Positions 49,572-63,685 of a DNA stretch of 64,000 bases are shown here, piece by piece. The DNA lies in the IMG/VR virus record IMGVR_UViG_2716884425_000003, positions 48,768 through 112,767 of that record. The stretch is one strand, 5' to 3'. Position 1 is the stretch's first letter, and each line of letters opens with the position of its first letter. Position numbers and translations under genes: made by a program. Source of the stretch: a virus. The notes below the pieces were generated by a model. That model was not told the DNA's origin. It made no database searches and saw only the letters and a list, made by a program, of their open reading frames with translations.

Positions 49572-49600
49572 AGTATAGACTAAAAGTGACAAAAAGTCAA
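49572..49600 (-). promoter_or_regulatory. sigma70-type promoter
   Basis: TTGACT-17-TATACT. Confidence 0.8.
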
Positions 49601-49617
49601 TAGCCTAAATGAAAAAG

Positions 49618-49668
49618 TTATTCACAATTGGAATGAGACTAGGTCTCAATAAGCGGGACCGGTCCCGC
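49618..49668. repeat. Composite palindromic element copy 1
   Basis: TTATTCACA, TGAGAC-TAG-GTCTCA, GCGGGACCGGTCCCGC. Confidence 0.9.
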
Positions 49669-49753
49669 CGCTATGTAATTACAAGCTTTTTATAGATCAC
49701 TAATAAAAGCAAGCAATACTGTAGCGGTCATAAATATAGGTATCAATTCCATA

Positions 49754-50044
49754 CTAGTTTACCTTCTTGTAGACGGGTTGGCTACGGTGTCCTTCAAAGT
49801 ATGCAGGACTCATGCACGTGACTTCTTCACGACCTGCTTGCACGTACAGGTCACCAACTACATAACCGTTCCAATACCTTTTGTTTTGGTTATAGTAGAA
49901 GTCGATAGCGTTTTGCATCTCATTAACAAAGTTAGGAGTTGCTGGCTTGTGTTCACTAGTGAAGTGAGCGCAAACATTGTCAGGGCCATCGTAACCTTTG
50001 GTTACCTTCTTCTCGAATGCTGATAGTTTAATATAATAGTTCAT
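49754..50044 (-). CDS. Hypothetical protein
   Basis: ORF track. Confidence 0.65.
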   Translation of the reverse strand: MNYYIKLSAFEKKVTKGYDGPDNVCAHFTSEHKPATPNFVNEMQNAIDFYYNQNKRYWNGYVVGDLYVQAGREEVTCMSPAYFEGHRSQPVYKKVN

Positions 50045-50049
50045 AATCT

Positions 50050-50241
50050 TTAGTCTCTGTCTCTGATGTCAAATCCATCGTTATCATTGTAATAACCTTC
50101 TACATTCCACATCTTGTCATAATTGACCTTTGGATATGGCCTTGGGCCTTGTGGTGTGTTGAAGTGTGTGTCCTTGTTCACGCCGTGTGCGTAAACCTTT
50201 TGAGCGTCTAGCTCTGTCTTTTTGTTGTTTGTCATACTCAT
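50050..50241 (-). CDS. Hypothetical protein (C-terminus paralogous to 51055-51399)
   Basis: NYDKMWNVEGYYNDNDGFDIRDRD. Confidence 0.7.
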   Translation of the reverse strand: MSMTNNKKTELDAQKVYAHGVNKDTHFNTPQGPRPYPKVNYDKMWNVEGYYNDNDGFDIRDRD

Positions 50242-50266
50242 AATCTCTTAATCTTTAACTGTGTCT

Positions 50267-50309
50267 AGTATACCATAGGGGGTGGGACATCCGTAGTCCT
50301 ACCGATTAA
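50267..50309 (-). repeat. Hairpin-promoter repeat copy 1
   Basis: GGTGGGAC-atccgta-GTCCTACC plus TGGTATACT box. Confidence 0.75.
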
Positions 50310-50550
50310 CTTTCTCAAATTCATCTACATTCATTGACCAGACCGAATCAACTACCCTACCGTCAGGGCTAACCTCTATGATCTCCACGCCACCCACTAG
50401 GCACTTGGCATCTACTGCGTGCTGTAGGCACTCGTGGGCTTCCTCTAGTAAGGCGTCAAATGACTTGCGGCACTTGACACGGGAGTTGAATACATCACCC
50501 AGAAACCAGAGTTCGTAGGTGGCTTGTCTCTTGTCTTTGTTAATCATCAT
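50299..50550 (-). CDS. Hypothetical protein
   Basis: True start MMINKDK at 50550, 6 nt after TATACT. Confidence 0.7.
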   Translation of the reverse strand: MMINKDKRQATYELWFLGDVFNSRVKCRKSFDALLEEAHECLQHAVDAKCLVGGVEIIEVSPDGRVVDSVWSMNVDEFEKVNR

Positions 50551-50556
50551 GCGTAC

Positions 50557-50598
50557 AGTATACCACGGGGGGTAGGACATCCGCCGTCCTACCAATTA
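50557..50598 (-). repeat. Hairpin-promoter repeat copy 2
   Basis: Perfect GGTAGGAC-N7-GTCCTACC plus TGGTATACT. Confidence 0.75.
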
Positions 50599-50620
50599 AA
50601 AACTTAAAAAAACTTCTTAA

Positions 50621-50663
50621 TGAGACTGAGTCTCAACGGGACCGGTCCCGCCGGCTGTCAAGC
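50621..50663. repeat. Composite palindromic element copy 2
   Basis: TGAGACTGAGTCTCA, GGGACCGGTCCC, TGTCAAGC. Confidence 0.9.
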
Positions 50664-50766
50664 AAAAAGTTTAGCCCCCTAGGAAACCCTAGGGGGTGGC
50701 CTTAATAATCGCGCTGTGTCGCTACAGGTCAGACCTCAAAGGCTCAAGCGCAGGAGTTCAGGCCGT

Positions 50767-50880
50767 CTAAACTACAATCTTCACGAATTGCCCAATCACT
50801 ACGCCAACAATAAGCGCAATGACTCCAATGTTAGTCACGAACAAAGTGTTCGTCCAATCTTTTTTAGTTTTAGTTTGCAT
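50767..50880 (-). CDS. Unannotated 37-aa membrane peptide
   Basis: MQTKTKKDWTNTLFVTNIGVIALIVGVVIGQFVKIVV. Confidence 0.55.
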   Translation of the reverse strand: MQTKTKKDWTNTLFVTNIGVIALIVGVVIGQFVKIVV

Positions 50881-50892
50881 AATAGGTTTATG

Positions 50893-51009
50893 TTAAAATA
50901 AGATAATAAGTGTCGGAAGAATAATCCAAAGTACAATAAAGTGCGCCGCCACAAGTAAGGCAAGCGGCATCAATAGAATTTCCAGAGCGTTAATAAGTGT
51001 TTTCATCAT
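50893..51009 (-). CDS. Unannotated 38-aa hydrophobic peptide
   Basis: MMKTLINALEILLMPLALLVAAHFIVLWIILPTLIILF; ATG 8 nt after the -10 box. Confidence 0.6.
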   Translation of the reverse strand: MMKTLINALEILLMPLALLVAAHFIVLWIILPTLIILF

Positions 51010-51017
51010 CTGTTTAC

Positions 51018-51046
51018 AGTATAGGTTAAATCCGTTAGTTTGTCAA
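51018..51046 (-). promoter_or_regulatory. sigma70-type promoter with GGAT spacer motif
   Basis: TTGACA-aactaacGGATttaacc-TATACT. Confidence 0.85.
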
Positions 51047-51054
51047 TCACAAAG

Positions 51055-51399
51055 TTAGTCACGGCAGCGAATGTCGTGGCCGTCATTGTCTAGGTAATAA
51101 CCTTGGACATTCCATTGCCTGTCGTAGTTCTGGGCAACGGGAAGATCCTTGTGGGAAGGAGCTTTTTGGCTCGCTTGGTAAACGTGCAGATCTTCCAAGT
51201 AATCATCAACTTCGTCTTGGCTGGCGTAATGCACAGCGTCGAATGGTACGGTGACACCGTAACCAGAACCGTCAAAAGATTCCAGCCACGCACCCTCACA
51301 GGATACGATGTTTACCAAGCGGCAAGGTTGGCCGCTGAGTGCGTTGATGTAAATAGCTCCGAGGATTAGGTTGTTTGCTTTCATTGTTTCGTTCTTCAT
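51055..51399 (-). CDS. Hypothetical protein
   Basis: True start MKNETMK (51399); the ORF-track N-terminus is a translated promoter. Confidence 0.7.
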   Translation of the reverse strand: MKNETMKANNLILGAIYINALSGQPCRLVNIVSCEGAWLESFDGSGYGVTVPFDAVHYASQDEVDDYLEDLHVYQASQKAPSHKDLPVAQNYDRQWNVQGYYLDNDGHDIRCRD

Positions 51400-51408
51400 T
51401 ATGTTAAT

Positions 51409-51437
51409 ACTATACCACACTTCTGCTTAATTGTCAA
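51409..51437 (-). promoter_or_regulatory. sigma70-type promoter
   Basis: TTGACA-17-TATAGT. Confidence 0.8.
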
Positions 51438-51552
51438 GTGCTTTTTTAATCTTTTTTAATTCTTTTACCTTTGCTACTAGCTCGTGCCATCTTTTCACGC
51501 GCTCGGTTTGCTCTCTGTAAATGTTTTCTTGTAGCTTGTTTATGTCGTTCAT
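51427..51552 (-). CDS. Unannotated 41-aa helical peptide
   Basis: MNDINKLQENIYREQTERVKRWHELVAKVKELKKIKKALDN; own promoter at 51562-51589. Confidence 0.55.
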   Translation of the reverse strand: MNDINKLQENIYREQTERVKRWHELVAKVKELKKIKKALDN

Positions 51553-51606
51553 CTTGTTAATACTATACCATAAAATGAAAAAAAGTCAACCCCTAAAATC
51601 AAAAAG

Positions 51607-51649
51607 TTATTCACAAAATGAGACTCAGTCTCAACGGGACCGGTCCCGC
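51607..51649. repeat. Composite palindromic element copy 3
   Basis: TTATTCACA, TGAGACTCAGTCTCA, CGGGACCGGTCCCG. Confidence 0.9.
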
Positions 51650-51675
51650 CGGTATAAAAGTCTAGCTATAAAATA

Positions 51676-51909
51676 CTAGAACTTCTCTACAAAAAATTCT
51701 TCGCCCCAAGCTTCCAAGTGAAATTCTTCTTTTGGCAGCCAGCCCCGCCAGTCATCAGATGCACGAACTAACCACATAGGCGGAAGGGCGTTATCATTTC
51801 GACGCTCTAAAATAAAACCTTTTGTGCCGTGCTCACGGATACGGTTTTTGGTGCGTTGGGTTGCGTTAGTCTTTGGACTAATCAGGATGCGATGGTTTTC
51901 AATATTCAT
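51676..51909 (-). CDS. Hypothetical protein
   Basis: ORF track. Confidence 0.65.
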   Translation of the reverse strand: MNIENHRILISPKTNATQRTKNRIREHGTKGFILERRNDNALPPMWLVRASDDWRGWLPKEEFHLEAWGEEFFVEKF

Positions 51910-51910
51910 A

Positions 51911-52351
51911 CTAAAATTCCTTTTGGTCTTGGTTTACTAATTCTCCTAACTCGCCTAATCCTACCAGATTCCGCTCGTCATTGTCAACTAACTTTCTTTG
52001 GACAAACTTGGCAATTCTGATTTTCTTGGCGGCAACTCGCTTGCTGCTAACCTTGGCCCAGTCTTTTGGTTCGTTAACGTCTACGCCTACGGTGACGATT
52101 CGACCGACATTGAATCCGAGAGCTTCAAGGGCTATGCGGATAAACTGTGCATTCTCTGGGCCGCGTGCGGTAAGAATGTCAAATTCTTTGCCAGAGTCTC
52201 TAACCAAAACACCTAGCGGAGTCAAATCATGCTCTGTGAGGTTAAGGATTGCGTGAGGTTTCAAAAAGTCAAATAGACGGTCGGAGCCGCGCTCCTCACG
52301 GATAAGGGTTCCGTCTAGGTCAAATAGTGGTTTTAATTTCTCGTTCATCAT
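51911..52351 (-). CDS. HAD-superfamily hydrolase-like protein
   Basis: LFDLDGTL, ILTARG, LVDND; true start MMNEK (52351). Confidence 0.7.
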   Translation of the reverse strand: MMNEKLKPLFDLDGTLIREERGSDRLFDFLKPHAILNLTEHDLTPLGVLVRDSGKEFDILTARGPENAQFIRIALEALGFNVGRIVTVGVDVNEPKDWAKVSSKRVAAKKIRIAKFVQRKLVDNDERNLVGLGELGELVNQDQKEF

Positions 52352-52357
52352 GTTAAT

Positions 52358-52386
52358 ACTATAGCTTAATTTTGCCAAAAAGTCAA
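52358..52386 (-). promoter_or_regulatory. sigma70-type promoter
   Basis: TTGACT-17-TATAGT, ATG 6 nt downstream. Confidence 0.8.
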
Positions 52387-52395
52387 GAAGTTTTT

Positions 52396-52509
52396 TCAAC
52401 TTTCTTCAACTTCAACCCACTCATCTTCTTCGTTGGTTGCGGGGTACACGGTGACCTCGAAAGGCCCGAAGGTGAATGTTTCTTCTCTCTCACTTTCTTT
52501 ATTCTTCAT
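52396..52509 (-). CDS. Unannotated 37-aa acidic peptide
   Basis: MKNKESEREETFTFGPFEVTVYPATNEEDEWVEVEES. Confidence 0.55.
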   Translation of the reverse strand: MKNKESEREETFTFGPFEVTVYPATNEEDEWVEVEES

Positions 52510-52515
52510 GCGTAC

Positions 52516-52558
52516 AGTATAGCACGCGAGGTTAGACATCCGTAGTCCCACCGATTAA
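52516..52558 (-). repeat. Hairpin-promoter repeat copy 3 (degenerate)
   Basis: GACATCCGTAGTCCCACCGATTAA plus TATACT. Confidence 0.7.
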
Positions 52559-52568
52559 AAAGTTTTAA

Positions 52569-52609
52569 TGAGACTGAGTCTCAACGGGACCGGTCCCGCG
52601 GCTGTCAAG
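52569..52609. repeat. Composite palindromic element copy 4
   Basis: TGAGACTGAGTCTCA, CGGGACCGGTCCCG, TGTCAAG. Confidence 0.9.
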
Positions 52610-52659
52610 AAAAAAATATAAAAATTGCACAAAAAAAAGCCCGCTTGCGCGGGTTGTGT

Positions 52660-52884
52660 TTACAGAAGCTCGCGCTTCTCCAGCCACTTCGCATAGGCGG
52701 GGGAGTCGTCCTCCCAGCAGATGCGCATGGCACGGTCGTGATCATACTCACGAATCTCCTCCTCGCGTACGCGCACGGTGCGACCGTCATCCTTGAGGAT
52801 GAGCCACTTGCCATTGCGCGGCGAGGCGGCGACTACTCCGAGGTAGCCGTTGAGGTTTTCAACCTCCATACCTAATTCAATCAT
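52660..52884 (-). CDS. Small SH3/KOW-like hypothetical protein
   Basis: ELGMEV...GVV...WLILKDDGRTVRV. Confidence 0.55.
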   Translation of the reverse strand: MIELGMEVENLNGYLGVVAASPRNGKWLILKDDGRTVRVREEEIREYDHDRAMRICWEDDSPAYAKWLEKRELL

Positions 52885-52935
52885 AGCGATATAATAAGGG
52901 CGCGATTTCCAAGGCCATCGCGCTGGCCCATGATG

Positions 52936-53154
52936 TTATTCCTTCCACTGTAAATCCAAGTAACCTTCATACTCGGACTTGTACTGCTTCCACTCGGCAT
53001 CCGTCATCAGAGGCCCGTGGACTGCGACCAGATCCGCCCAACTCTCTTGCTCCAAGAGTAGCTGTTGGCGGCTCTCATACTCCTCGTGTTCGATCTGTGC
53101 TTCGATGTCGGGAGTGATGGTTTCTTCTATGGTTGGCATCATGTCGCTCATCAT
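52936..53154 (-). CDS. Hypothetical acidic protein
   Basis: True start MMSDMM (53154). Confidence 0.65.
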   Translation of the reverse strand: MMSDMMPTIEETITPDIEAQIEHEEYESRQQLLLEQESWADLVAVHGPLMTDAEWKQYKSEYEGYLDLQWKE

Positions 53155-53160
53155 GTTAAG

Positions 53161-53189
53161 AATATAACACACATCCAGAAGCTGTGCAA
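53161..53189 (-). promoter_or_regulatory. sigma70-type promoter with GGAT spacer motif
   Basis: TTGCAC-agcttctGGATgtgtgt-TATATT. Confidence 0.75.
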
Positions 53190-53207
53190 GCACTTTTTTG
53201 CATTAAA

Positions 53208-53279
53208 TTATTCACAGTATAGGTATAAAAAAAGCTTGACGCCGGCCGGGACCGGTCCCGAAAATGAGACCGAGTCTCA
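53208..53279. repeat. Composite palindromic element copy 5 (opposite orientation)
   Basis: TTATTCACA...GCTTGACG, CGGGACCGGTCCCG, TGAGACCGAGTCTCA. Confidence 0.9.
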
Positions 53280-53423
53280 TTAAGAAACTCGGCCCATTAT
53301 GGAAAAATAGTTTTATATAATAGTATTTTTTTTATATAGGCAATCCTTTCTATTTAATTATTACTTTTATGTATTAGTTCAGCAACTAGCAAGGCGGATA
53401 ATCCAAGTAACAAAATTGTCATT

Positions 53424-53618
53424 TTATATATCGACGTAGATTTTGGCTTCAAGCTGGTAGCGTTCTACTTCGAGAATTTCGTCGTGTTCGTTTTTACAAT
53501 AGAGTTGCTGTTTGTCTCTTGACAGGCCCACAACTTCCAATAGATCATCATCAGTGTGAATGGTGTCGCCGTGGTCTACTTGTTTAATCTGGCTTTTTAA
53601 TAGTTTCATATTCATCAT
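53424..53618 (-). CDS. Hypothetical protein
   Basis: ORF track. Confidence 0.6.
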   Translation of the reverse strand: MMNMKLLKSQIKQVDHGDTIHTDDDLLEVVGLSRDKQQLYCKNEHDEILEVERYQLEAKIYVDI

Positions 53619-53638
53619 CTTTGTTACTTTGTTTTTGT

Positions 53639-54418
53639 CTAATTAGCCTTTGCCGATTTCTTAATCGCTTGTAAGGCCAAACTCGCTGCGCTCCCCGCTG
53701 GCTGTGTGCCGTGAATCAGCAACGCAAAGTTATCTTCGCCAAATGCTGCGTGCGTATCGTCGTGGTCGATTTCTAATCCACGCTCGGCGGCTTCTTCTTC
53801 ACTGTAAACCACGAGAGCTTCTTTCCAACCGTGAAGGTCAATCAAATCGTCATGCTTGCCACCACGGGAAGCAGTCAAAACAAGATTCTCAGGCAAGGCA
53901 AATTGCTTGAACAAATGCAAGCTCTTGCTGTAAGAGTAAAACACCTTGTCGGGATTCAGCTTGGCAACTTCAATCCACGCTTGCAAATACTCCTTGTTGA
54001 AGTAATCGCCGCCAACGTGAACGCGCATGATGTCGAACTTCTTCGGCAAGCTCTTGTGGATGAGTTGCGAGGTGTGCGGCATTCCGCATCCCGCGCCATC
54101 CACCACGAAGCCAAGCGCATTCTCAAATCCGGCTTGTGCGTCACGCTTCAGGGCTTCTTTAATCAATTCAAGGTTATGCCAAACGAGTTTTCTTAATGAT
54201 GGGGAACGCGCCTCTGCGCTTGCCATGAAACAGCGAAACACTGTGTCCGGCCCATCGGTGACTTTTCCCGTTACTCTGTCAGCACGGGAAAAACAATCCT
54301 TTGCCGCTGGGCAAGTATGCCCTGCGGGAAGTGTGAAGGTTTTCAGCACAAGGCCGACCTTCTTAATCATTTTCTTGAGCTTGGCGTTAGGGTCGCCAAA
54401 TTTGAGTTTGTCCATCAT
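53639..54418 (-). CDS. Gp88-like phage protein (Cys-containing)
   Basis: FTLPAGHTCPAAKDC...CFMA...RVHVGGDYF...FYSYSKS...LTASRGG. Confidence 0.75.
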   Translation of the reverse strand: MMDKLKFGDPNAKLKKMIKKVGLVLKTFTLPAGHTCPAAKDCFSRADRVTGKVTDGPDTVFRCFMASAEARSPSLRKLVWHNLELIKEALKRDAQAGFENALGFVVDGAGCGMPHTSQLIHKSLPKKFDIMRVHVGGDYFNKEYLQAWIEVAKLNPDKVFYSYSKSLHLFKQFALPENLVLTASRGGKHDDLIDLHGWKEALVVYSEEEAAERGLEIDHDDTHAAFGEDNFALLIHGTQPAGSAASLALQAIKKSAKAN

Positions 54419-54426
54419 CTTTGTAT

Positions 54427-54455
54427 AGTATAGGCTTTATCCGGTCGCGTGTCAA
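54427..54455 (-). promoter_or_regulatory. sigma70-type promoter with GGAT spacer motif
   Basis: TTGACA-cgcgaccGGATaaagcc-TATACT. Confidence 0.85.
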
Positions 54456-54457
54456 TC

Positions 54458-54883
54458 TTAAACGTCACACGTTCCGTTGTTAAATGATTTTTCTTCGTTA
54501 GTGTAAACATCGCCCATCGTGTAAACGTGACCTTCGCGCCCGTAGCGCATGGAAACATCTTTGCGCTCCATACCGTCGAACTTCTCCTTGGCAAAAGCCT
54601 TGGCGTAAGGCATCGCGCCACCCTTGGCAGTCTTAAACGCCTCGGCGTTTTCGTTCAGCATCAGAGCCAAGTAAATGTTCTCCAATGCGCGGAGCAACTT
54701 TTCCTCGGTGGTGCAAAAAGCCAATTCATTCTCAAAGATCCACTCTGGCGCGTCTTGACTTGTCGCCTCATGGTTCCAGAATGAGTTAAACCACGCCTCG
54801 GCGAGTTCTGCGTTTTCAGCCTTCAAGTAAATCTTGAGCCAGCCGTGGGAGTCGGGGATGTATGTGAGTTTGATGTTTTTCAT
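54458..54883 (-). CDS. Hypothetical protein
   Basis: ORF track; promoter 54893-54921 (TTGACA-17-TATACT). Confidence 0.7.
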   Translation of the reverse strand: MKNIKLTYIPDSHGWLKIYLKAENAELAEAWFNSFWNHEATSQDAPEWIFENELAFCTTEEKLLRALENIYLALMLNENAEAFKTAKGGAMPYAKAFAKEKFDGMERKDVSMRYGREGHVYTMGDVYTNEEKSFNNGTCDV

Positions 54884-54907
54884 TGTTCGAGTAGTATATA
54901 GGATTTT

Positions 54908-55036
54908 CTAGTTGGTGTCAATACTTTTTTTATGTTTTTGTTTGCGAGTGTAAGAGCCTTTGCCCTTCTTTACTTTATGCTCACGGGACGCACTGCCCAT
55001 GAACCCGTTCGGATTTACTCTTGCTTTAATCTTCAT
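54908..55036 (-). CDS. arfA: Unannotated 42-aa ArfA-like ribosome rescue peptide
   Basis: MKIKARVNPNGFMGSASREHKVKKGKGSYTRKQKHKKSIDTN contains the ArfA signature KKGKGSYxRKxKH. Confidence 0.75.
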   Translation of the reverse strand: MKIKARVNPNGFMGSASREHKVKKGKGSYTRKQKHKKSIDTN

Positions 55037-55087
55037 GGACGTAGTCTAACAGAAACGGAAACAAAAGGCGAGAAAAAAATGAAAAAA

Positions 55088-55159
55088 TAATTCACACCCT
55101 GTGCATAAAAAAAGCTTGACAGGGCCGGGACCGGTCCCGCCAAATGAGACTGAGTCGCA
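55088..55159. repeat. Composite palindromic element copy 6
   Basis: TAATTCACA...GCTTGACA, CGGGACCGGTCCCG, TGAGACTGAGTCGCA. Confidence 0.9.
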
Positions 55160-55241
55160 ATAAGTATCTATGTGATTTTTATACTATAGGCACACAATAA
55201 AAAATCCCTCCTATTTGATAGGAAGGATTATTTGAAGTTAT

Positions 55242-55757
55242 TTAGAGTTTGTAAAAAACGTGCTTGCCTATTTTTGCCACAGGCTTGATTGGTACTTTAA
55301 CTTCTCTGCCGTTCTTAATTACTTTCTTGTATGTCCAATAGGGAGGTTTAATATCCGTGGAATAATAGTGATTAGCATCACCAACCCAAGCGTGATTTAA
55401 TTGTTGATTGGCACAAATAGATTTGGCAACCAACTTGGCGTACCGCACGATGATACATTTGGAATCCCAAAGGTAATCTAACTCACTTTCTTTCTTAACC
55501 TTTCCTTTGCCAGCGTTCCAAATGCTAAACTGCCAAGGTTGCAAGCATACTTGTGCGGGGGTGAGCTTACGTTGCGCTGCGCGTTTTTGTATAACGCAAG
55601 CAACTCCATATACGCCAATTTCAGATTCCCCACGCGCTTCGCCCAACAACGTCAGAGCGACAATGCGCTCTTCAGTTGTTAGGGAAAAATCTGCCGCCGC
55701 TGCACTAGCAAAGACAATGAAGATAATGAATCCAATAATGATGTGTATCCGTTCCAT
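55242..55757 (-). CDS. SleB-like cell wall hydrolase (Hydrolase_2) with N-terminal signal/TM
   Basis: ALTLLGEARGE, CLQPWQFSIWN, ANHYY, PPYW, IGKHVFY. Confidence 0.85.
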   Translation of the reverse strand: MERIHIIIGFIIFIVFASAAAADFSLTTEERIVALTLLGEARGESEIGVYGVACVIQKRAAQRKLTPAQVCLQPWQFSIWNAGKGKVKKESELDYLWDSKCIIVRYAKLVAKSICANQQLNHAWVGDANHYYSTDIKPPYWTYKKVIKNGREVKVPIKPVAKIGKHVFYKL

Positions 55758-55763
55758 GATTCT

Positions 55764-55792
55764 AGTATAGGGGTTATCCGGTAAAAAGTCAA
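55764..55792 (-). promoter_or_regulatory. sigma70-type promoter with GGAT spacer motif
   Basis: TTGACT-ttttaccGGATaacccc-TATACT. Confidence 0.85.
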
Positions 55793-55850
55793 GGGGAGAG
55801 AGAGCCTCAAGAGGCGAAGCATTACGCCAAGCCCTCCCTCCCCGTTAGGG

Positions 55851-56321
55851 TTAAGCGTTAGCCTTCTTTGCTTGCCTAGCTCGCTTCACTTGTGCGAGCT
55901 TTCGTGCCAGCTTCCGCTTGTTGGCGACCATGCGCTTTTCAGTCATGGTGCGCGTTCCCTGCACCCACGCTACAATCTTGTCGTAGACGGTGGGACTGAT
56001 GGACGAAACATCTCCGTAAAATCCATCGTTGTTAGTGTTACCCGATACGATAACGTCAGGGAGCAACTGCGCTACGGCGCGAACCGTGTTGATGTGCTTC
56101 TGCTCCGTGAGCTTGTCGTTTTTAGTGCCACTGTTGGCGTGGATGGTGTCAAACAGACGACCATCGAACCCAACGCCACCGCTGACGTTGAATCCACACG
56201 CCATCTTGCCAGCTTTACGCTGCTCGACACCGTTGCGGGTTTTACCAGCATACAGGAGAATCTTTCCGTTCTCAAGTTCTGTGCCAGTGATGTAGTTAGT
56301 ATGTGAATGTAGGTTGTTCAT
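55851..56321 (-). CDS. Hypothetical protein with basic C-terminus
   Basis: ORF track; promoter 56359-56387 (TTGACT-GGAT spacer-TAACAT). Confidence 0.7.
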   Translation of the reverse strand: MNNLHSHTNYITGTELENGKILLYAGKTRNGVEQRKAGKMACGFNVSGGVGFDGRLFDTIHANSGTKNDKLTEQKHINTVRAVAQLLPDVIVSGNTNNDGFYGDVSSISPTVYDKIVAWVQGTRTMTEKRMVANKRKLARKLAQVKRARQAKKANA

Positions 56322-56406
56322 CAGTTTTTAGTATATGTTTTTGTCTCGCACTGTTTCTATGTTACTAGATATCCGATTCGTAGTCAACATAAAAATTAAT
56401 AAAATT

Positions 56407-56982
56407 AAAAAAATTGAGGCGGCTGTCGGCGTTGTTGCTTCCAATCACTTTAATGGGTTGACCAACCTCAAATTATCTAAATTAGTGGGAAGATGGATTG
56501 CTGCATTACCATCAAGACCAGTACACAATACAGTTCAGTTTTACCAGTCTACTAAAACTACGAGAGTCATACGATTGCACTCTCTCAAGTAGCCTCATGC
56601 CTTTCCCCTTATGGTGGAGGGATATTCAGCCATTCCCTTGGGGCAACCGTCGCCGCCCCAAAATTTATAGCCCTCGGTTACGACAAGGTCTGCCGACCAA
56701 GTCTCGCAAGGACATCCTGCCTGTGCCACATGACTGCACCCAGCTTTGTGCGGATTGCGACTCCGCTGTCTCTAAGGTTTCGACACCTTAAAGGCTGAAC
56801 AGGATTAAGTTATTGCATAGGCCGCTACCTCTACGGGCGTTTAGTGTTCTTCACCTATGCTGCTGGTGCTTCCTCGTCCCTAACAGGGCGCGTACCCTGT
56901 TCGCTACGTTAGGCTTGCCAAGACTGTGTTTCGTCTCCCAGCAAAATTGTTTCAAAGATCGTGGAGGTGTTACCCTCACTGT
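56407..56982 (-). ncRNA. Large (~575 nt) highly structured non-coding RNA of unknown class
   Basis: Dedicated promoter (56989-57017), no credible minus-strand ORF, >10 hairpins and multibranch stems whose G.U pairs work only on the minus strand, terminal stem plus U-run. Confidence 0.75.
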
Positions 56983-56988
56983 TTTAAT

Positions 56989-57017
56989 AGTATACCGCAC
57001 ATCCGGTTTCAGTGCAA
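56989..57017 (-). promoter_or_regulatory. sigma70-type promoter with GGAT spacer motif driving the large ncRNA
   Basis: TTGCAC-tgaaaccGGATgtgcgg-TATACT. Confidence 0.8.
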
Positions 57018-57049
57018 GTCTTTTTTTACTTTTTTTTACTTAAGTTTAG

Positions 57050-57087
57050 GCTTGACAAGGGCGGGACCGGTCCCGCGGGTGTCAAGC
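57050..57087. repeat. Composite palindromic element copy 7 (symmetric form)
   Basis: GCTTGACA-agg-GCGGGACCGGTCCCGC-ggg-TGTCAAGC. Confidence 0.9.
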
Positions 57088-57107
57088 AAAAAGTTTCCCC
57101 AATGGCA

Positions 57108-57133
57108 AAAAAAATCCCCGCCCGAAGGCGGGG
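57108..57133 (-). terminator. Rho-independent terminator
   Basis: CCCCGCC-TTCG-GGCGGGG plus U-run; same hairpin as at 12287-12304. Confidence 0.85.
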
Positions 57134-57153
57134 GGTGTGTTTGTAGGTTTGGC

Positions 57154-58089
57154 CTAGTTGTTCTCGACCTTTACGCCGTCAGCCTTGGCAACCGCCACCA
57201 GCTTCTCGAACCGCTTGGGGTTGTCGCTGGCGAGGTTGAACCGCTTGAGGAGTTGACCGCTGACGCGGTTGGCGTACTCGAAGCGGGTAGACTCGAACGT
57301 GCCGACAGCATCGCCAGACTTCTTGTCAACCAAGTTGTCACTGGTGAGGTACTGCGTGGCAGCGTTGTACAGTTGGTACAGGTTGCGGTCATCGCCTACC
57401 GAACCGTCAGCACCATCCTCGCGTGGGTTGTTCCACACGCTCGAAATGCCCTCGCGCACCTTGTCAGAAATCAAACCAGTGTCGGCTTGGTTTTGCAGGG
57501 CGAAGATGCCTTGCTCCTGAGTGATGCCAACGCGAGCCAGCGCGGCGTAGGTGTTGCCCGTTTTGGTGAACGAGGCGAGTGCCTTGTCGATGGCGTCATC
57601 GGTCAGCAAGGCGTTGAGGTCGAACTTCTTGGAGTGCTTCTTGAGCATATCCAGTTCTTTCTCAAGCGTCTGCATACCGTTGGTGCAAACAAGGCGAAGC
57701 ATACCGAGCGCAAAGGATACGCGCAGCGAGCGGTCAAACGAGTTTTGCAAGGTGAGGCGGAAGCCCATCTTGTCACCCACTTCTGGCACTTCAATGTCGT
57801 GGCCCTTGAAGTCGTAATTGACGCGGAGCTTGGCCCCGCCGTCAGTCACATAAATGTTGCGCTCGTAGTCGCCAAGACCCTTGCGAGCGAAAGCACTTTC
57901 TGCTTTCTCTACTAGGTCGGCGTTTTGTACGATGCCGTAGCGGCTCGTATGACAGCCCAGCACCTCGTTGTTGTCGAGGCGGCGGGATGCGAAGAAACCG
58001 GACTTTTTGCCGTCAGGCAGGAAAAGCTCCTCCTGCGCTACGGTGAAATCCCAGTCTTTATTCTTGCTTTGTTTTGCGGTAATAGGCAT
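57154..58089 (-). CDS. DUF932/DUF945-family phage protein
   Basis: YGIVQN...LTLQNSFDRS...GMLRLVCTNGM...NLYQLYNAATQY. Confidence 0.85.
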   Translation of the reverse strand: MPITAKQSKNKDWDFTVAQEELFLPDGKKSGFFASRRLDNNEVLGCHTSRYGIVQNADLVEKAESAFARKGLGDYERNIYVTDGGAKLRVNYDFKGHDIEVPEVGDKMGFRLTLQNSFDRSLRVSFALGMLRLVCTNGMQTLEKELDMLKKHSKKFDLNALLTDDAIDKALASFTKTGNTYAALARVGITQEQGIFALQNQADTGLISDKVREGISSVWNNPREDGADGSVGDDRNLYQLYNAATQYLTSDNLVDKKSGDAVGTFESTRFEYANRVSGQLLKRFNLASDNPKRFEKLVAVAKADGVKVENN

Positions 58090-58136
58090 ATGTTCGTTCT
58101 CTTTGGTTAGATGTTATGTCTCAATCGACTAAAACC

Positions 58137-58165
58137 ATTATCTCACATATCCAAATCACTTGCAA
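58137..58165 (-). promoter_or_regulatory. sigma70-type promoter with GGAT spacer motif
   Basis: TTGCAA-gtgatttGGATatgtga-GATAAT. Confidence 0.65.
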
Positions 58166-58340
58166 GCATAAAATGCGTGTCACAAGCATCTTTTTTTTAT
58201 CCCCTAATTGTTGCCGTTAATTAGACCGTCATTTATGAGCGACAAATCCATTTGCCAACCAAAAAACGCAAAAAGTGATCGGCAAGTTTCGTAAAAAGGG
58301 GAGTTTTCTCCGGTGCGAAATATCGCCAAAACACGAAATC

Positions 58341-58400
58341 TTCACAGGCTGTGAATAAAAAAAGCTTGACGGCCGCGGGACCGGTCCCGGCGTGTCAAGC
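58341..58400. repeat. Composite palindromic element copy 8
   Basis: TTCACA-ggc-TGTGAATAA, GCTTGACG, GGGACCGGTCCC, TGTCAAGC. Confidence 0.9.
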
Positions 58401-58463
58401 AAAAAAAAAGAGGCAGGACCCGGTCAAACACAAAAAACCCGGGCCCTGCCGTTGGTGGAAAAG

Positions 58464-58676
58464 TTAATCTAATATTCTACGACTATACTCCCATGAGGGT
58501 ACGTGATTATGATGACCGTGAGCATGCCAATGACCACGCTCGTGTGGCTTATGATAAACGTTAACTTTGTGACCCAAGAAGCTCGTAGTAAAATGCGAGT
58601 TATCTTTATAAGTTCCTGATGTCCAAGAACTGCAGCCACTGGCTAGCGCTATCAATATGACTAGGATCCACTTCAT
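58464..58676 (-). CDS. Small His-rich lipoprotein
   Basis: MKWILVILIALASGC lipobox; HERGHWHAHGHHNH. Confidence 0.65.
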   Translation of the reverse strand: MKWILVILIALASGCSSWTSGTYKDNSHFTTSFLGHKVNVYHKPHERGHWHAHGHHNHVPSWEYSRRILD

Positions 58677-59185
58677 TAGTTAGCCTCCTGATTGACTGGT
58701 ACCTGTGCCCAGCACGTGGGGCCAATGATCACTTTGCGTGCGGTAAAGACCGGCTCGTAGACGTCTTCAATTGAACGAAGAGGATCTGTGTCACGAGTCA
58801 TGAACGTCTTGTACTTGTAGGGATTATATACAAGCTCAAGCCATCGATATCCCTCGCGGTCGTGCGCCTTGATGGCAGCCTCTTGCCAGTCTCTGGCGAC
58901 ATCCTTTGCGTGACCGAGGTCGAATGCATCCATGTCATTATCATACCACACGGCATTGACCATATGCCCGCGCACTACAGCGTGCACGTTCTTGCGCTGC
59001 TCTTCACGTACGCGCTCGTTGCCCTTAGGCCCGACCGCGAGCTTGACTGGCTTAGCAGTACTGCCATCAAGGATAACCATCAGGGCATGCCCCTCCACAA
59101 GACCGTCCTTGCGCACGGAATAAACGATGTCGTCCCTGAAGTGCAGGTTGCGGTACACCTCGCGTTTAAAAATGCTAGCGTCCAT
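58676..59185 (-). CDS. Conserved-looking phage hypothetical protein
   Basis: VYRNLH...GNERVREEQRKNVHAVVRG...YNPYK motif pattern. Confidence 0.7.
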   Translation of the reverse strand: MDASIFKREVYRNLHFRDDIVYSVRKDGLVEGHALMVILDGSTAKPVKLAVGPKGNERVREEQRKNVHAVVRGHMVNAVWYDNDMDAFDLGHAKDVARDWQEAAIKAHDREGYRWLELVYNPYKYKTFMTRDTDPLRSIEDVYEPVFTARKVIIGPTCWAQVPVNQEAN

Positions 59186-59409
59186 TACACCTCCTCCTCC
59201 TCGGTTCCATCAAGAATGCCAAAAATTTCATCTTGGCAAGTCTGACAAAAACCTGATAGTCGGAATTCCTTCTCGGAAATCTCATCACGAAAGTTGAGAT
59301 CGTAGGTTCCGCACTTGACGCACTGTCCAGCTGCGATTGCTAGCTGACGACTGCGACCGAACATGGAAAACGCCATGTCTTCTTTGTATTGCTCTAGTTC
59401 GTTCATCAT
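59185..59409 (-). CDS. Small zinc-finger protein
   Basis: CVKC...CQTC. Confidence 0.7.
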   Translation of the reverse strand: MMNELEQYKEDMAFSMFGRSRQLAIAAGQCVKCGTYDLNFRDEISEKEFRLSGFCQTCQDEIFGILDGTEEEEV

Positions 59410-59416
59410 GTATACC

Positions 59417-59445
59417 AGTCTACTACAGATCCGTTTCTATGTCAA
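59417..59445 (-). promoter_or_regulatory. sigma70-type promoter with GGAT spacer motif
   Basis: TTGACA-tagaaacGGATctgtag-TAGACT. Confidence 0.8.
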
Positions 59446-59479
59446 CAGTAAACTTATCCCCAACCCCACAAGAAAAAAA

Positions 59480-59571
59480 GCTTGACGTCGCGGGACCGGT
59501 CCCGGCGGTGTCAAGCATAAAATGAAAAAACTTATTCACAGGTATAGTTATAAGGTTGAGACTTAATCTCA
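59480..59571. repeat. Composite palindromic element copy 9
   Basis: GCTTGACG, CGGGACCGGTCCCG, TGTCAAGC, TTATTCACA, TGAGACTTAATCTCA. Confidence 0.9.
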
Positions 59572-59867
59572 TCTACATCATTAATATAAACCTTACTTAT
59601 TTGGCATGTTTATTTGGCTTATTTCGGACTCATATTTAACGAGCCTATTCTTCGCACCTTATTTTAACATAACCTGTTTGAGCTTGCCTTATTATATTTT
59701 GCAAGGTCTTATTTATTATTACACTTTGATGGGGTAAAATACAAAAAAAATCCCCCCCGCTTTTACACGAGGAGGATTCGATGATGATGAACGAACCGTG
59801 GACATTGCATCCACTATCTATATATTAGCCTACTTCCTGACTAAATTCAAGTTTATTTTTACTTTAT

Positions 59868-60161
59868 TTACCATTGTAAGAATTCAATTATGTTATTTAT
59901 ATTTACTTTCTTCTCTATTATATTCTTTATATTGCTATTCTCTTGTCCTGCATATATATAATCTACTATGTATAAATCATCTTCTATTTCTGCTATCTTA
60001 ACCTTCCAAGCACCTAGGTTGTATTTGAACTTATAAAATAACTCACCTTCATTTAATGTGCCGCGCCATTCAAACTCTGACATCTGGAATGGTTCGCCAT
60101 CTATCTTATATTTATTTTTTACTAGTCTTGTTTGACTTGTTGGTTTTATTATCAAGCTCAT
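59868..60161 (-). CDS. Hypothetical protein
   Basis: ORF track; start uncertain (overlaps the end of ruvB). Confidence 0.5.
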   Translation of the reverse strand: MSLIIKPTSQTRLVKNKYKIDGEPFQMSEFEWRGTLNEGELFYKFKYNLGAWKVKIAEIEDDLYIVDYIYAGQENSNIKNIIEKKVNINNIIEFLQW

Positions 60162-61080
60162 TAAGATACTCCAATCCTTTGCTGGTTAGTGAACGACCCT
60201 CTGGCTGAATCTCCATGAGTCCCATCTTGGACAGGTACAACTCGTAGTCCTTCTGGATAGCACCCTTGGACAGTCCAGTGATAGCGGCAAGCTCGGTGAG
60301 GCGAGTAGCCTTCTTGCGAGCCATGTAACGCATGAGGTTGAGTTCCTGTACGCTCAGGCCGAGCGGGAGGATACCGATGCGGTCACACAACGATGCCCAA
60401 TCCTTCTTGTCAAAGTGCTTCTTACCCTTGGCATCGAGGTAAAGGCGCATCTTGGTCGCCATCTTTTGCGCTGCACGGGCGTTACCGCGCAGTACGTTAG
60501 AAATCTCGGAGAGTGTCTTGGGTTCGACAGTGTAACCGTCAAGGCCCATCATCACAATCTGACCAAGCTCATCTAACTTATATTCTTCTAGGTCGATGCG
60601 CTCCATTCTGTCCATGAGTGCATGGAAGATGCTCTGACCCTCGGTAGTGGCGAACATGAAGCTCAAGCGGCGAAAGTCAAACGTCACGTTGTAATCCTCG
60701 TAGGAGAAGTCGTTACGATTGTCTGGATTGGGGTTGGTGATGGTCAACAACGCCATTGTTACGTCCTTGGGCAACTCGGAACACTCGTCGAACAGCACGG
60801 TAGCGTCACGCTCGACCATGTGCGGAATCACAATCATGTTGAAGAACTGCTTGAGACTCTTGATGGTAGAGCAGTTGATGGTAATGAGAGGTTTGATGCT
60901 GCCCTCTGCATACAGGTTCTTTGCCATCGCAGTTGCCATAGTGGTCTTGCCACAACCGCGAGGTGCTGTAAACATGAGGTGAGGAATCACGCTGGTCTCT
61001 TTGTGTCCGTCAATGTAAAAGCCTAGTGCTTTCTTCACACGGGATTGTCCAATAATGTCTGGGAAGTAGGTATCAGTCAT
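60112..61080 (-). CDS. ruvB: RuvB-like AAA+ branch-migration ATPase
   Basis: IIGQ, Walker A APRGCGKT, LFDE, FATT, LMDR, RGNARAA, C-terminal winged helix ending GRSLT. Confidence 0.85.
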   Translation of the reverse strand: MTDTYFPDIIGQSRVKKALGFYIDGHKETSVIPHLMFTAPRGCGKTTMATAMAKNLYAEGSIKPLITINCSTIKSLKQFFNMIVIPHMVERDATVLFDECSELPKDVTMALLTITNPNPDNRNDFSYEDYNVTFDFRRLSFMFATTEGQSIFHALMDRMERIDLEEYKLDELGQIVMMGLDGYTVEPKTLSEISNVLRGNARAAQKMATKMRLYLDAKGKKHFDKKDWASLCDRIGILPLGLSVQELNLMRYMARKKATRLTELAAITGLSKGAIQKDYELYLSKMGLMEIQPEGRSLTSKGLEYLNELDNKTNKSNKTSKK

Positions 61081-61088
61081 CAGTAATA

Positions 61089-61117
61089 AGTATAGGGGTT
61101 ATCCTACCAGTTGTCAA
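61089..61117 (-). promoter_or_regulatory. sigma70-type promoter with GGAT spacer motif
   Basis: TTGACA-actggtaGGATaacccc-TATACT. Confidence 0.85.
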
Positions 61118-61394
61118 CACTAAAATCTGGCGCGGGTTCTTCTTTGTTACTTGCATTCAAGTCAGTGACCTGTACGGCATTGGCCTTGGCAGCAGTAGCA
61201 AGGGGCATCATCATCGTCGGGGTGGACACAACAGGCTGACCTTCGATACCCATAGATTCGCAGAACTTCCTGCTCACTACGATAATAGCACCACTAGGCA
61301 ACTTGTCGGTCAATTCCGTGAGGGGAACCATGCAGAAGCTAACGCTCCCTTTCTTGCGCCCCGCACCCGATTTACGTTTCTTTTTCTCGCTCAT
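61104..61394 (-). CDS. Hypothetical protein (basic N-terminus GAGRKKG)
   Basis: Start MSEKK at 61394, 8 nt after the promoter at 61403-61431 (TTGACC-GGAT spacer-TATACT). Confidence 0.65.
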   Translation of the reverse strand: MSEKKKRKSGAGRKKGSVSFCMVPLTELTDKLPSGAIIVVSRKFCESMGIEGQPVVSTPTMMMPLATAAKANAVQVTDLNASNKEEPAPDFSVDNW

Positions 61395-61459
61395 CTTCAA
61401 CCAGTATAAAGGTTATCCGCTCTGAGGTCAAGCAAATAAAATGAATAAAATTAAATTAA

Positions 61460-61726
61460 TTAGTCTTTCCATTCATTCTCACTATCATTAAAGCTCCCAT
61501 GCTCTTCTTCATATATCCATGCCTCAACTAACTTACTTACTTCGTGGGCGAGTTCCGAGGCGCGGCGACCATCGTGATGCTCAATAATCTCCTTTTGGGC
61601 AAATACGGGGCGTTTGGCGAAAAGCTGATCCCATGCCTTCTTGTATAGGCGTGCGGCGTGCAACTGCTCTGCATTTGGCTTTTTCTTACTTACTTTCTTT
61701 GATGTTTTCTTCTTGGGGGTTGTCAT
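61460..61726 (-). CDS. Hypothetical protein
   Basis: ORF track; promoter 61735-61763 (TTGACT-GGAT spacer-CAATAT). Confidence 0.65.
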   Translation of the reverse strand: MTTPKKKTSKKVSKKKPNAEQLHAARLYKKAWDQLFAKRPVFAQKEIIEHHDGRRASELAHEVSKLVEAWIYEEEHGSFNDSENEWKD

Positions 61727-61846
61727 ATGCTCTTATATTGAGGTATATCCAGTTTTAAGTCAAGTAAATAATCTTAAAACGCAATTAAAATTATTAAAAT
61801 TAATAAAATTGGCATTTTTCTTTGTTATTATCTTAAATATCGCAAA

Positions 61847-61875
61847 TGAGACTCATTCTCAACGGGACGGGTGCG
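61847..61875. repeat. Degenerate composite element copy 10
   Basis: TGAGACTCATTCTCA-ac-GGGACGGGTGCG. Confidence 0.6.
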
Positions 61876-62866: not shown

Positions 62867-63685
62867 CTATTCTTCGTCTCCGTACCCCAAGTCTCTTGTC
62901 GCTTGGGCGTACCCTTCGGCGTATGCCTCGTTCTCCTCGTCGGAGTAGTCGTAGTTGATACCATCGTCCAATGGAGGTGCTTCGATATTCTCCATGTGAC
63001 CTACGACCTTGTAGGAAGCAGTACGCAACTTCTGGCACTGACAATCATGCGGAACGCTGACCACATCAGTTGGGTCAATTTCCACAATCATCAGATTGCC
63101 CCCATTAGAAGCGTAACCCTTGGCATATTCATAACTGCCAGCGTGAAACCCGTCAGAGCAACCGACATTGGCATCATCGCACACTTGGTTGCGAATCATG
63201 GTCAAGGTCTGTCCAACAGTGTTATCAAACTTGCGGGTATGAAAGTCCATGAAATCGCTCGTTACGCCTTTGTAAGCGAGGAAGTTGCCTTCAGGGGTCA
63301 GGGGCATGGATTTATGCTCCAAGAACCGATACAACTCCTCTGTGGCGCGGCGAGAGGGGTTCGCCATGAGCTTTCCAAGGAACTTCACCAAGGGTTGATA
63401 TGGTAGACCTTCTCGCATGAAATCGAGAATCTTGTCTACGCAATAGTTGTGGATGGACTCGCCTCCGTAGAATACCTGTCCGTCCTTTACCTCGATGTTA
63501 GCATCAGCGTCGAGGTAATCCTCCACGGCATGAGACACATCGAACATCTTCTCAAGCCTCTCCCATTCGGAGTTCTTGAGTGCATCCTTCGCCTGTTCCC
63601 AAGCTGGATGGTCATTGTTCATGGTTTGAGCCTGACCATTTATCACCACTGTCAGACTGTTTTCTGTTAATATGTGCGGTATCAT
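62867..63685 (-). CDS. rIIB: rIIB-like protein
   Basis: FLEHKSMPLTPEGNFLAYKGV...CSDGFHAG...IVEIDPTDVVSVP...KLRTASYKV. Confidence 0.8.
   Translation of the reverse strand: MIPHILTENSLTVVINGQAQTMNNDHPAWEQAKDALKNSEWERLEKMFDVSHAVEDYLDADANIEVKDGQVFYGGESIHNYCVDKILDFMREGLPYQPLVKFLGKLMANPSRRATEELYRFLEHKSMPLTPEGNFLAYKGVTSDFMDFHTRKFDNTVGQTLTMIRNQVCDDANVGCSDGFHAGSYEYAKGYASNGGNLMIVEIDPTDVVSVPHDCQCQKLRTASYKVVGHMENIEAPPLDDGINYDYSDEENEAYAEGYAQATRDLGYGDEE

Follow-up and report, generated by a model that had tools for sequence, protein, structure and literature searches.

Promoter-early stem-loop (PeSL) cassettes have been described in the T4-type phages RB49/phi1, T4/PST and KVP40/nt-1, where they fill hyperplastic early regions, end upstream transcription and start that of the next gene, and mark the places at which relatives differ by whole genes (PMC2839356; PMC4122927). 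In the commonest PeSL layout the stem-loop follows directly after the -35 box, and both termination or attenuation by the stem-loop and promoter activity have been demonstrated by reporter assays in RB49/phi1 (PMC2839356). A further PeSL trait is that packaged mini-circles arise when neighboring motifs recombine. Here we describe a composite intergenic element, built around a perfect GC-rich palindrome, that recurs among the early genes in a 64,000-bp window (bases 48768–112767) of the 136,548-bp virus record IMGVR_UViG_2716884425_000003, which is estimated to be 79% complete; coordinates refer to this window unless another record is named. We assign a probability of roughly 55% to the reading that the palindrome serves as the GC stem-loop part of a composite cassette located between genes, a functional counterpart of the PeSL, which separates early units in uncultured marine myoviruses.

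The likeness to PeSLs extends over several features. The motif is composite and intergenic and combines a sigma70-type early promoter with a GC-rich stem-loop, although here the -35-like arm next to the stem-loop lacks a -10 and the promoter forms a second unit; it is present in many copies among small early genes, nine within 10 kb in this phage and similarly in its relatives; the breakpoints of indels, replacements and reordering fall at the motifs; site-specific recombinases play no part; and the layout of a -35 followed by a stem-loop is shared. There are, however, clear differences. The stem-loop is here one invariant, perfect 14-bp palindrome, the working promoter is separated from the -35-like arm and lies 45–60 bp on, a canonical terminator is in most cases found before the element, which also has two extra fixed modules (the 15-bp palindrome TGAGACTNAGTCTCA and the phased motif TGTGAATAA), and the unit occurs in both orientations as well as in mirrored recombinant forms. 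Moreover, the phage is not T4-type by its terminase, and its cassette is known from sequence alone. A more distant resemblance is to the REP/BIME elements of enterobacteria, which are likewise intergenic GC-rich imperfect palindromes located after genes, modular and found in both orientations; those, however, belong to chromosomes, run to hundreds of copies and are associated with RAYT transposases, whereas the present element has nine copies and is tied to promoters in a phage early region.

In large phages, most host-takeover and anti-defense genes of unknown kind reside in the early regions, and the gain, loss and reordering of these genes is poorly understood. The element provides a well-sampled marine example, with more than 100 junctions and 48 junction types in which exchange points appear to be marked by an invariant 14-mer, and a module-by-module anatomy can be given, comprising a -35 half, a GC dyad, a 15-bp palindrome and a phased DnaA-box-like motif, with sister lineages that carry other dyads. 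Elements of this kind have been published before; the present analysis would extend the PeSL idea beyond the T4-type phages.

An invariant palindrome in the early intergenic junctions

A preliminary description of the window had listed a 12–16-bp palindrome at nine positions, always intergenic, and a degenerate tenth copy. The 12-mer GGGACCGGTCCC is present as an exact copy at all nine (49655, 50638, 51636, 52586, 53248, 55127, 57063, 58377 and 59492), against a chance expectation of 0.02 (mean of dinucleotide-preserving shuffles), and none of 100 shuffles reaches nine copies. Since a C precedes and a G follows the 12-mer in 9/9 copies, the invariant unit is the 14-mer CGGGACCGGTCCCG, hereafter the core; the outer (GC) of a 16-mer is present in some copies only. 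A search of the whole record returned no further exact copy of CGGGACCGGTCCCG, and the core is the sole repeated GC-rich palindrome of at least 10 bp in the record. All cores lie between credible minus-strand genes, in agreement with the intergenic placement, and the open reading frames (ORFs) that cover them are short, overlapping and implausible. The degenerate copy, GGGACGGGTGCG in plus-strand letters, is also real and is located at 61864–61875 beside a 7-1-7 palindrome. An Rfam scan gave no match at the junctions, and the literature on GGGACCGGTCCC yielded only one irrelevant oligonucleotide.

The core (B) is combined with an arm, GCTTGACA (A), with the mirrored arm (A') and with a 15-bp palindrome (C). 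Within the window, the layout A-B-A' occurs three times (cores at 59491–59504, 58376–58389 and 57062–57075), C-B-A' twice (55126–55139 and 53247–53260), A-B-C twice (52585–52598 and 50637–50650) and x-B-C twice (51635–51648 and 49654–49667, the latter with a degenerate far A arm); the core matches CGGGACCGGTCCCG exactly in each. C-B-A' is A-B-C turned round, as is seen for the reversed unit at 55126–55139, and the core at 53247–53260 is the endpoint of an inversion in the relative G001. The layout C-B-C is present in a second relative, G002. Judged by sequence, A-B-A' and C-B-C correspond to the two products that would be expected from exchange between oppositely oriented units within the palindrome.

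Reordering of early units at the palindrome

Composite-pattern scans led to four IMG/VR contigs with the element; G004 is near-identical to G001. The relatives have 6–8 cores per record (8 in G004), in each case in a single cluster of about 9–11 kb, and apart from a single one-mismatch core in G003, GGGACCGGTCCT, nearly all cores of the viral relatives are exact. G001 is a 178-kb genome rated complete, with its core cluster at 120.8–129.8 kb, and no end repeats were found in it.

Four early regions were cut at the core centers and the resulting pieces compared. The units follow the order a-b-c-d-e-f in this genome and a-b-c-e'-d-f in G002; in G001, b-a-d precedes a portion of c and then e in inverted orientation, and G003 has b-a-d. 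At most breakpoints a core lies no more than about 25 bp from the start or end of an alignment block, which by manual count applies to about 9 of the 11 breakpoints relative to G001. A 72-aa gene at 52936–53154 is co-directional here and in G002, and is found on the opposite strand in G001, beside core 11408, where it is read divergently. The permuted and inverted units with breakpoints at cores support the earlier suggestion of PeSL-like boundaries for cassette shuffling.

Arm clusters were analyzed after skipping 120 nt on each side, which excludes the shared regulatory modules. Over the whole data set, 53 arm clusters are linked through 97 cores, which gives 48 combinations, and at least two different partners are found for 17 of the 29 multi-member clusters. 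Sequence comparison thus supports a history in which related phages swapped, reordered and flipped units at the palindromes, the cores not being separated here from terminator-promoter gaps as such. An RNA-library contig (run X16) links 50594 to 54952 via 32 other bases and represents another cassette order from a related phage population.

Conservation and replacement of the palindrome in relatives

Marine metagenome contigs were scanned with the pattern of C followed by TGTGAATAA, which gave 90 stretches, 80 of which were retrieved as loci. Exact cores number 84 in these loci, spread over 36 contigs and 47 flank contexts, and four further copies are variants with one or two mismatches (84/88 exact). 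The bases that flank the core vary among copies, even at orthologous junctions of close relatives (cgcc vs. cgtc, and gcggcC vs. gcgaccT).

In other lineages the core is replaced by a different GC-rich dyad upstream of a conserved C palindrome. The dyad is GCGGGGGGCCGC in 4/4 junctions of contig G006, while GCGGGTGGGCCCGC, GGCGGGGGCCGCC, GCGGGGCACCCCGC, TTGCGGCGGCWGCCCCCGCAA and others occupy the same slot elsewhere, and two different dyads are found inside one contig in both L062 and L079. Among 34 slot dyads, 26 fold at -8 kcal/mol or below, mostly with a 5–7-bp stem and a 4–7-nt loop, and end 2–7 nt before C. The core can itself be read as GCGGGA-CCGG-TCCCGC, which matches the pattern of a stem with a loop of about 4 nt. 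Because stem length varies across lineages and the loop stays at about 4 nt, the slot fits a nucleic-acid hairpin rather than paired protein half-sites, and on the basis of this comparison the palindrome is interpreted as this clade's fixed version of a stem-loop module.

At 8350, 9221, 9889 and 11207 (minus strand) of contig L035, the core slot contains a near-consensus sigma54-type sequence, GGCAC-N5-YTGC, followed by the hairpin GCGGGGGGCCGC and then by C; near-consensus sequences of this type also occur in L073/L053 and L036/L033. A megablast search of the region against GenBank phages gave no match to an isolated close relative, and a scan of a genome collection for the host gave two matches, which are probably due to chance.

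Anatomy of the junctions

Read on the gene strand, a junction consists of a terminator, a T-run with the GCTTGACA arm, 4–6 variable GC-rich bases, the core, A' or C, TGTGAATAA and the promoter. The module 3' of the core is either the mirrored arm TGTCAAGC with a T-run or the 15-bp palindrome TGAGACTNAGTCTCA, and a complete sigma70-type promoter is located 45–60 bp beyond the core, consistent with the initial view that the real promoters are separate and lie nearby.

The sequence GCTTGAC[AG] had been noted 4–6 nt from the core and without a -10 at 17 nt, and nine such arms are confirmed beside cores; in full, the arm-to-core spacing takes values of 4, 5, 6 or 12 nt. The -35-like hexamers are thus present as proposed, but are reinterpreted here as halves of the phage's early promoter design. 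On the minus strand, the A arm GCTTGACA at 59509–59516 is -35-like and directed at the core, and further A arms are located at 58393–58400, 57080–57087 and 50656–50663, with a variant, CTTGACA, at 52603–52609. Mirrored arms on the plus strand are found at 59480–59487 (GCTTGACG on that strand, followed by T7 on the gene strand) and 57050–57057, and, with T-runs, at 58364–58371, 55114–55121 and 53234–53241. Intrinsic terminators of the respective upstream units, all on the minus strand, are present at 57116–57133 (with a UUCG loop and U8), 52640–52653, 55203–55229 and 59748–59779.

In the A-B-A' forms the two arms pair, and the resulting hairpin folds at -20 to -22.6 kcal/mol and is followed by U7 in two of the three copies; by its modeled structure, this hairpin with U7 is a predicted strong terminator.

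The 7-1-7 palindrome C had also been described, and eight copies were found in the window; the label "Fur-box-like" attached to it at that stage receives no support from the tests made here. Five copies match the motif, at 49634–49648 (TGAGACNNNGTCTCA), 50621–50635, 51619–51633, 52569–52583 and 53265–53279, and three have one mismatch, namely those at 55145–55159, at 59557–59571, which lies away from a core and heads a C-TGTGAATAA-A unit, and at 61847–61861, which adjoins the degenerate core. Variants of C alter one side only, with no compensatory change on the other. An RNA hairpin was rejected for C on these grounds, and C is more likely a DNA site.

Early promoters and the upstream motif

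The motif TTATTCACA is the reverse complement of TGTGAATAA, and six of its seven copies in the record are located in the region, at 49371, 49618, 51607, 53208, 58350 (reverse) and 59532. It fits TTATNCACA, the relaxed consensus of the DnaA box, a 9-mer to which host DnaA binds. In this phage family, the distance from TGTGAATAA to the real -35 is 8 nt (12 cases), 17 nt (54), 18 nt (21) or 27–28 nt (2) in 89 of 90 distinct promoter sequences, the one exception having 16 nt. As these spacings are steps of one helical turn, TGTGAATAA is assigned to an upstream module of the early promoters, and probably binds a protein on a single helical face. The positions given earlier for a DnaA-box motif are correct, and its role is reinterpreted. 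TTATTCACA-type motifs without a core are found in two more distant lineages (contigs L033/L034/L036, and L035).

On the minus strand, TGTGAATAA is placed 17 nt 5' of the -35 at 49600 (motif at 49618–49626, TTATTCACA on the plus strand), 17 nt 5' of that at 51589 (51607–51615) and 18 nt 5' of that at 53189 (53208–53216). At 59532–59540 it is instead 17 nt 5' of the TTGACA of an A arm, at 59514. Among 92 A arms, 8 have TGTGAATAA at 7 or 17 nt on the 5' side of their TTGAC. Arm A is therefore a promoter-type -35 half in the usual register, and is followed by the core in place of a spacer and -10. The copy at 58350–58358 (plus strand) has TTATTCACA on the gene strand and forms the left half of an inverted pair, TTCACAG-G-CTGTGAA; inverted pairs of the form TTCACA-N3-TGTGAA are made by TGTGAATAA at some junctions (58350, 55100).

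The promoters are of the type TTGACx-17-TATACT, often with CGGAT in the spacer. Those downstream of the cores, all on the minus strand, are TTGACA-17-TAGACT at 59417–59445, with ATGATG 7 nt past the -10; TTGCAC-17-TATACT at 56989–57017, which belongs to a non-coding RNA unit; TTGCAC-17-TATATT at 53161–53189; TTGACT-16-TATAGT at 51562–51589; and TTGACT-17-TATACT at 49572–49600. Two others are extended -10 promoters, TGcTATACT at 52516–52524 behind an imperfect GGGAC-N-GTC dyad and TGgTATACT at 50557–50565 behind the hairpin GGTAGGAC-N7-GTCCTACC; a hairpin of the GGGAC/GTCC type is also present at about 50284. About 15 strong sigma70-type early promoters are found in 49572–61431 (minus strand), and many of them have CGGAT at a constant distance of 6 nt 5' of the -10. 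Many genes in this interval begin with ATGATG 6–7 nt past the -10, which implies that their mRNAs are probably leaderless.

The distance from the core center to the -10 is 70–88 bp in 80 of 87 distinct sequences, and nearly every value in this range is taken. Peaks are about 5 bp apart, the periodicity is weak and all helical phases are used. Helical phasing of the core to the promoter was therefore rejected; relative to RNA polymerase the core, unlike TGTGAATAA, has no fixed helical face, and this speaks against its being a classical site for an activator or repressor of the downstream promoter.

Proposed function of the palindrome

In the proposed mechanism, the dyad would either fold as a hairpin in read-through RNA or extrude in DNA, and would thereby serve as a boundary or back-stop. 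The mirrored form with its U-run would act as a strong intrinsic terminator, and the non-mirrored forms may have a boundary or back-stop role. The shared 14–60 bp, identical in both orientations, would further provide a substrate for exchange, deletion, insertion and flipping of cassettes, the core being usable as homology in either orientation because it is palindromic. Candidates for the acting proteins are the phage's own RecA-like protein, RuvB-like protein and ERCC4 nuclease.

The RuvB-like protein is a full-length AAA+ protein with a C-terminal winged helix (PDB 3pfi, E = 5.5e-14), encoded among the early genes at 60112–61080 (minus strand), and no RuvA was noticed alongside its gene. 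A match to the ERCC4 nuclease domain was obtained. A 317-aa protein, encoded directly beside the large terminase gene at 31404–32357 (minus strand), has one N-terminal C2H2 zinc finger and probably carries this ERCC4 domain, with GDYAYSD and IERK motifs recognized by eye. Tyrosine and serine recombinases (PF00589 and PF00239) are absent from four genomes in searches with positive controls. With RecA-like, RuvB-like and ERCC4 proteins present and these recombinase families absent, the phage has a homologous-recombination toolkit and no classical site-specific one, and site-specific recombination sites of the attC, lox or hix type were rejected on the absence of the two families.

Several points weigh against the PeSL-like interpretation. 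In more than 100 copies the 4-nt loop CCGG varies no more than the stem does, although the bases directly beside the core change, a pattern predicted by a sequence-specific reader but not by a plain hairpin or passive homology; conversion tracts limited to 14 bp seem unlikely. Most cores lie 3' of a separate canonical terminator, and the A-B-C and C-B-A' junctions have no U-run after the hairpin, so that termination cannot be the general role of the core. Unit boundaries would be favored breakpoints with or without a core, and the metatranscriptome contigs are too short and fragmentary to show transcription of the core. Finally, the best match of the terminase, a Clostridium/Bacillus phage terminase, is only 26% identical, and by this measure the phage is not T4-type; it also has three sigma factors, yet the T4-type markers include an rIIB-like protein (phrog_609, E = 5e-69), a RecA-like protein and a tail sheath match.

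Less probable, but to be taken seriously, is that the clade's stem-loop became a dedicated 14-mer site that is read by a phage protein; this would be either a nuclease, for which the 156-aa early protein discussed below is an example, or a factor that insulates or shuts off the early region. If so, the phage would actively control, or cut and reshuffle, its early cassettes at defined joints with no classical recombinase.

Alternative explanations

The 14-bp palindrome could primarily be a sequence-specific operator or insulator for a dimeric phage or host protein, i.e., a regulator or roadblock of the early region, with cassette exchange as a by-product, comparable with KorB at the OB sites of plasmid RK2 or with the repressor at mycobacteriophage stoperators. 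The KorB OB and parS sites offer the same picture of a perfectly conserved 13–16-bp palindrome that recurs roughly 10 times, stands upstream of promoters at distances that vary and is combined with other operators. The identity of all 14 bases, including the central ACCGGT, in the nine copies here and in 84/88 metagenome copies, next to 4–6 flanking bases that differ, would be accounted for by such a site, as would the perfect dyad symmetry of the core; the fixed element of G006 in 4/4 junctions is what co-evolution of site and protein would produce. No candidate protein, however, was recognized: the early ORFs scanned contain no helix-turn-helix family, and ParB_N (PF02195) is absent from four genomes, one of them complete, in searches whose controls were positive, which separates this locus from KorB and parS. 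The core is also out of helical register with the promoter, and the two GC dyads within one contig (L062, L079), with a variable stem and a loop of about 4 nt, are better explained as hairpins. We regard an operator as the primary role of the palindrome as rather unlikely, though it is a serious rival.

The comparison with stoperators was based on those of L5 and other cluster A mycobacteriophages (PMC9283540; PMC6550527), which, like the present arms, are -35-like motifs that lack a -10 and recur many times in short gaps between genes. A check of the L5 sequence confirmed the consensus GGTGGMTGTCAAG and the sense-strand site CTTGACAGCCACC, and the latter resembles CTTGACAGCCGC of several arms; moreover, the early region here holds genes of the L5 gp82 and gp88 families. 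The L5 sites, however, are 13-bp asymmetric sequences that are distributed genome-wide and oriented with transcription, whereas the arms here face a palindrome, have 7–8 conserved bases (CTTGACA) and are confined to 10 kb. A tblastn search for the L5 repressor homolog gp71 in this genome and its relatives gave a best E value of 0.4, and given this result and the wrong geometry an L5-type stoperator system was rejected.

Arm and core together might alternatively form a promoter for a holoenzyme with a phage sigma factor or of the sigma54 type, which would define a second temporal class of transcripts. The GCTTGACA arm is a perfect -35, in some arms preceded by TGTGAATAA at the promoter-like distances given above; three sigma70-family proteins are encoded, one with regions 1.2 to 4; the slot element of G006 matches the sigma54 pattern GGCAC-N5-YTGC in 4/4 copies, as do elements of two other lineages; and the core reads CGGGAC-N5-CCG(C). 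Nothing, however, is conserved at the -10 position, 16–18 nt past TTGACA, the spacing between arm and core is variable, and the element is symmetrical whereas the genes are one-directional. GC at the sigma54 -12 position is found in only about half of the copies, and no sigma54 or enhancer-binding gene was seen, no search having been aimed at either. An alternative promoter is therefore judged improbable. For MerR-type or ordinary promoters made of arm and core, the lack of a -10 at 16–21 nt led to rejection; a sigma54 promoter has GG-N10-GC in TGGCAC-N5-TTGC at a fixed place, and the core instead offers CGGGAC-N5-CCG with C next in about half of the copies. N4-type hairpin promoters go with a virion or phage single-subunit RNA polymerase; the 2996-aa ORF encodes a tape measure protein.

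Very improbable, in our assessment, is cleavage of the palindrome by a phage nuclease, either a free-standing homing-type or a cruciform-specific enzyme, whose breaks would drive cassette exchange. The breakpoints and one inversion at the core would follow from such cutting, and the phage encodes a RuvB-like ATPase as well as an ERCC4 nuclease with a zinc finger. The conserved 156-aa early protein at 55851–56321 (minus strand), which has a very basic C-terminal helix, shows a GIY-YIG-like residue pattern (Y10, Y24-x-G26, R29, E73, N78; alignment read by eye) and a weak lead to GIY-YIG from a language model (Atlas, 0.90). The GIY-YIG identity was, however, not confirmed: Pfam gives no GIY-YIG match even at E = 10, the fold model is poor (pLDDT 69) and I-TevI is matched at only Z = 2.4. 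Furthermore, an enzyme cutting its own genome nine times would require tight control, and a 14-bp palindrome is too short for ready extrusion.

That the sites organize incoming or replicating DNA, by parS- or matS-like loading, as injection stops or as multiple origins with DnaA-box-like motifs, is the least probable reading, for although about nine palindromes are clustered in 10 kb and six of the seven TTATTCACA copies lie in the region, ParB_N is absent from four genomes, the complete 178-kb relative has its cluster at 121–130 kb and no reported end repeats, contrary to staged entry at a terminus, and the DnaA-box-like motif is tied to the promoter -35 (at 8, 17–18 or 27–28 nt) rather than to the core and occurs without it in two distant lineages.

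Gene content and neighboring early genes

The structural genes include those for a tail sheath, minor tail proteins and the 2996-aa tape measure protein, and ribonucleotide reductase, ThyX, PhoH and ClpP are also encoded. The rIIB-like protein is located at 62867–63685 (minus strand); a 761-aa ORF upstream of it (113017–115302 of the whole record, G000) has no Pfam match and may be an rIIA partner. The three sigma70-family genes are at G000 129378–130199 (regions 1.2, 2, 3 and 4), at G000 9730–10353 and at 33438–34163 of the window, the latter two being short. No recognizable DNA-binding family was found among the small early ORFs scanned with Pfam, PHROGs and Atlas. A search for T7-type RNA polymerase (PF00940) gave no match, but was silent in control genomes too and so does not establish absence, and the giant ORFs were partly scanned.

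The non-coding RNA unit downstream of the core at 57063 contains a manA RNA motif at 56482–56660 (minus strand; RF01745, 69.5 bits vs. a gathering threshold of 55.2, E = 3e-16). The interval 55850–56919 has the deepest contigs in three marine metatranscriptomes. After the core at 55127, a 42-aa ORF at 54908–55036 (minus strand) matches ArfA in Pfam (PF03889, E = 5e-5). ArfA is known from beta- and gammaproteobacteria, and the match hints at a host from this group. Position 55048 is an end point shared by RNA contigs of two separate runs. The early units also carry genes of the DUF932, L5 gp82 and mycobacteriophage GP88 families, at 57154–58089, 58676–59185 and 53639–54418 (minus strand), families that are known elsewhere from the leading regions of plasmids and from the mycobacteriophage early right arm.

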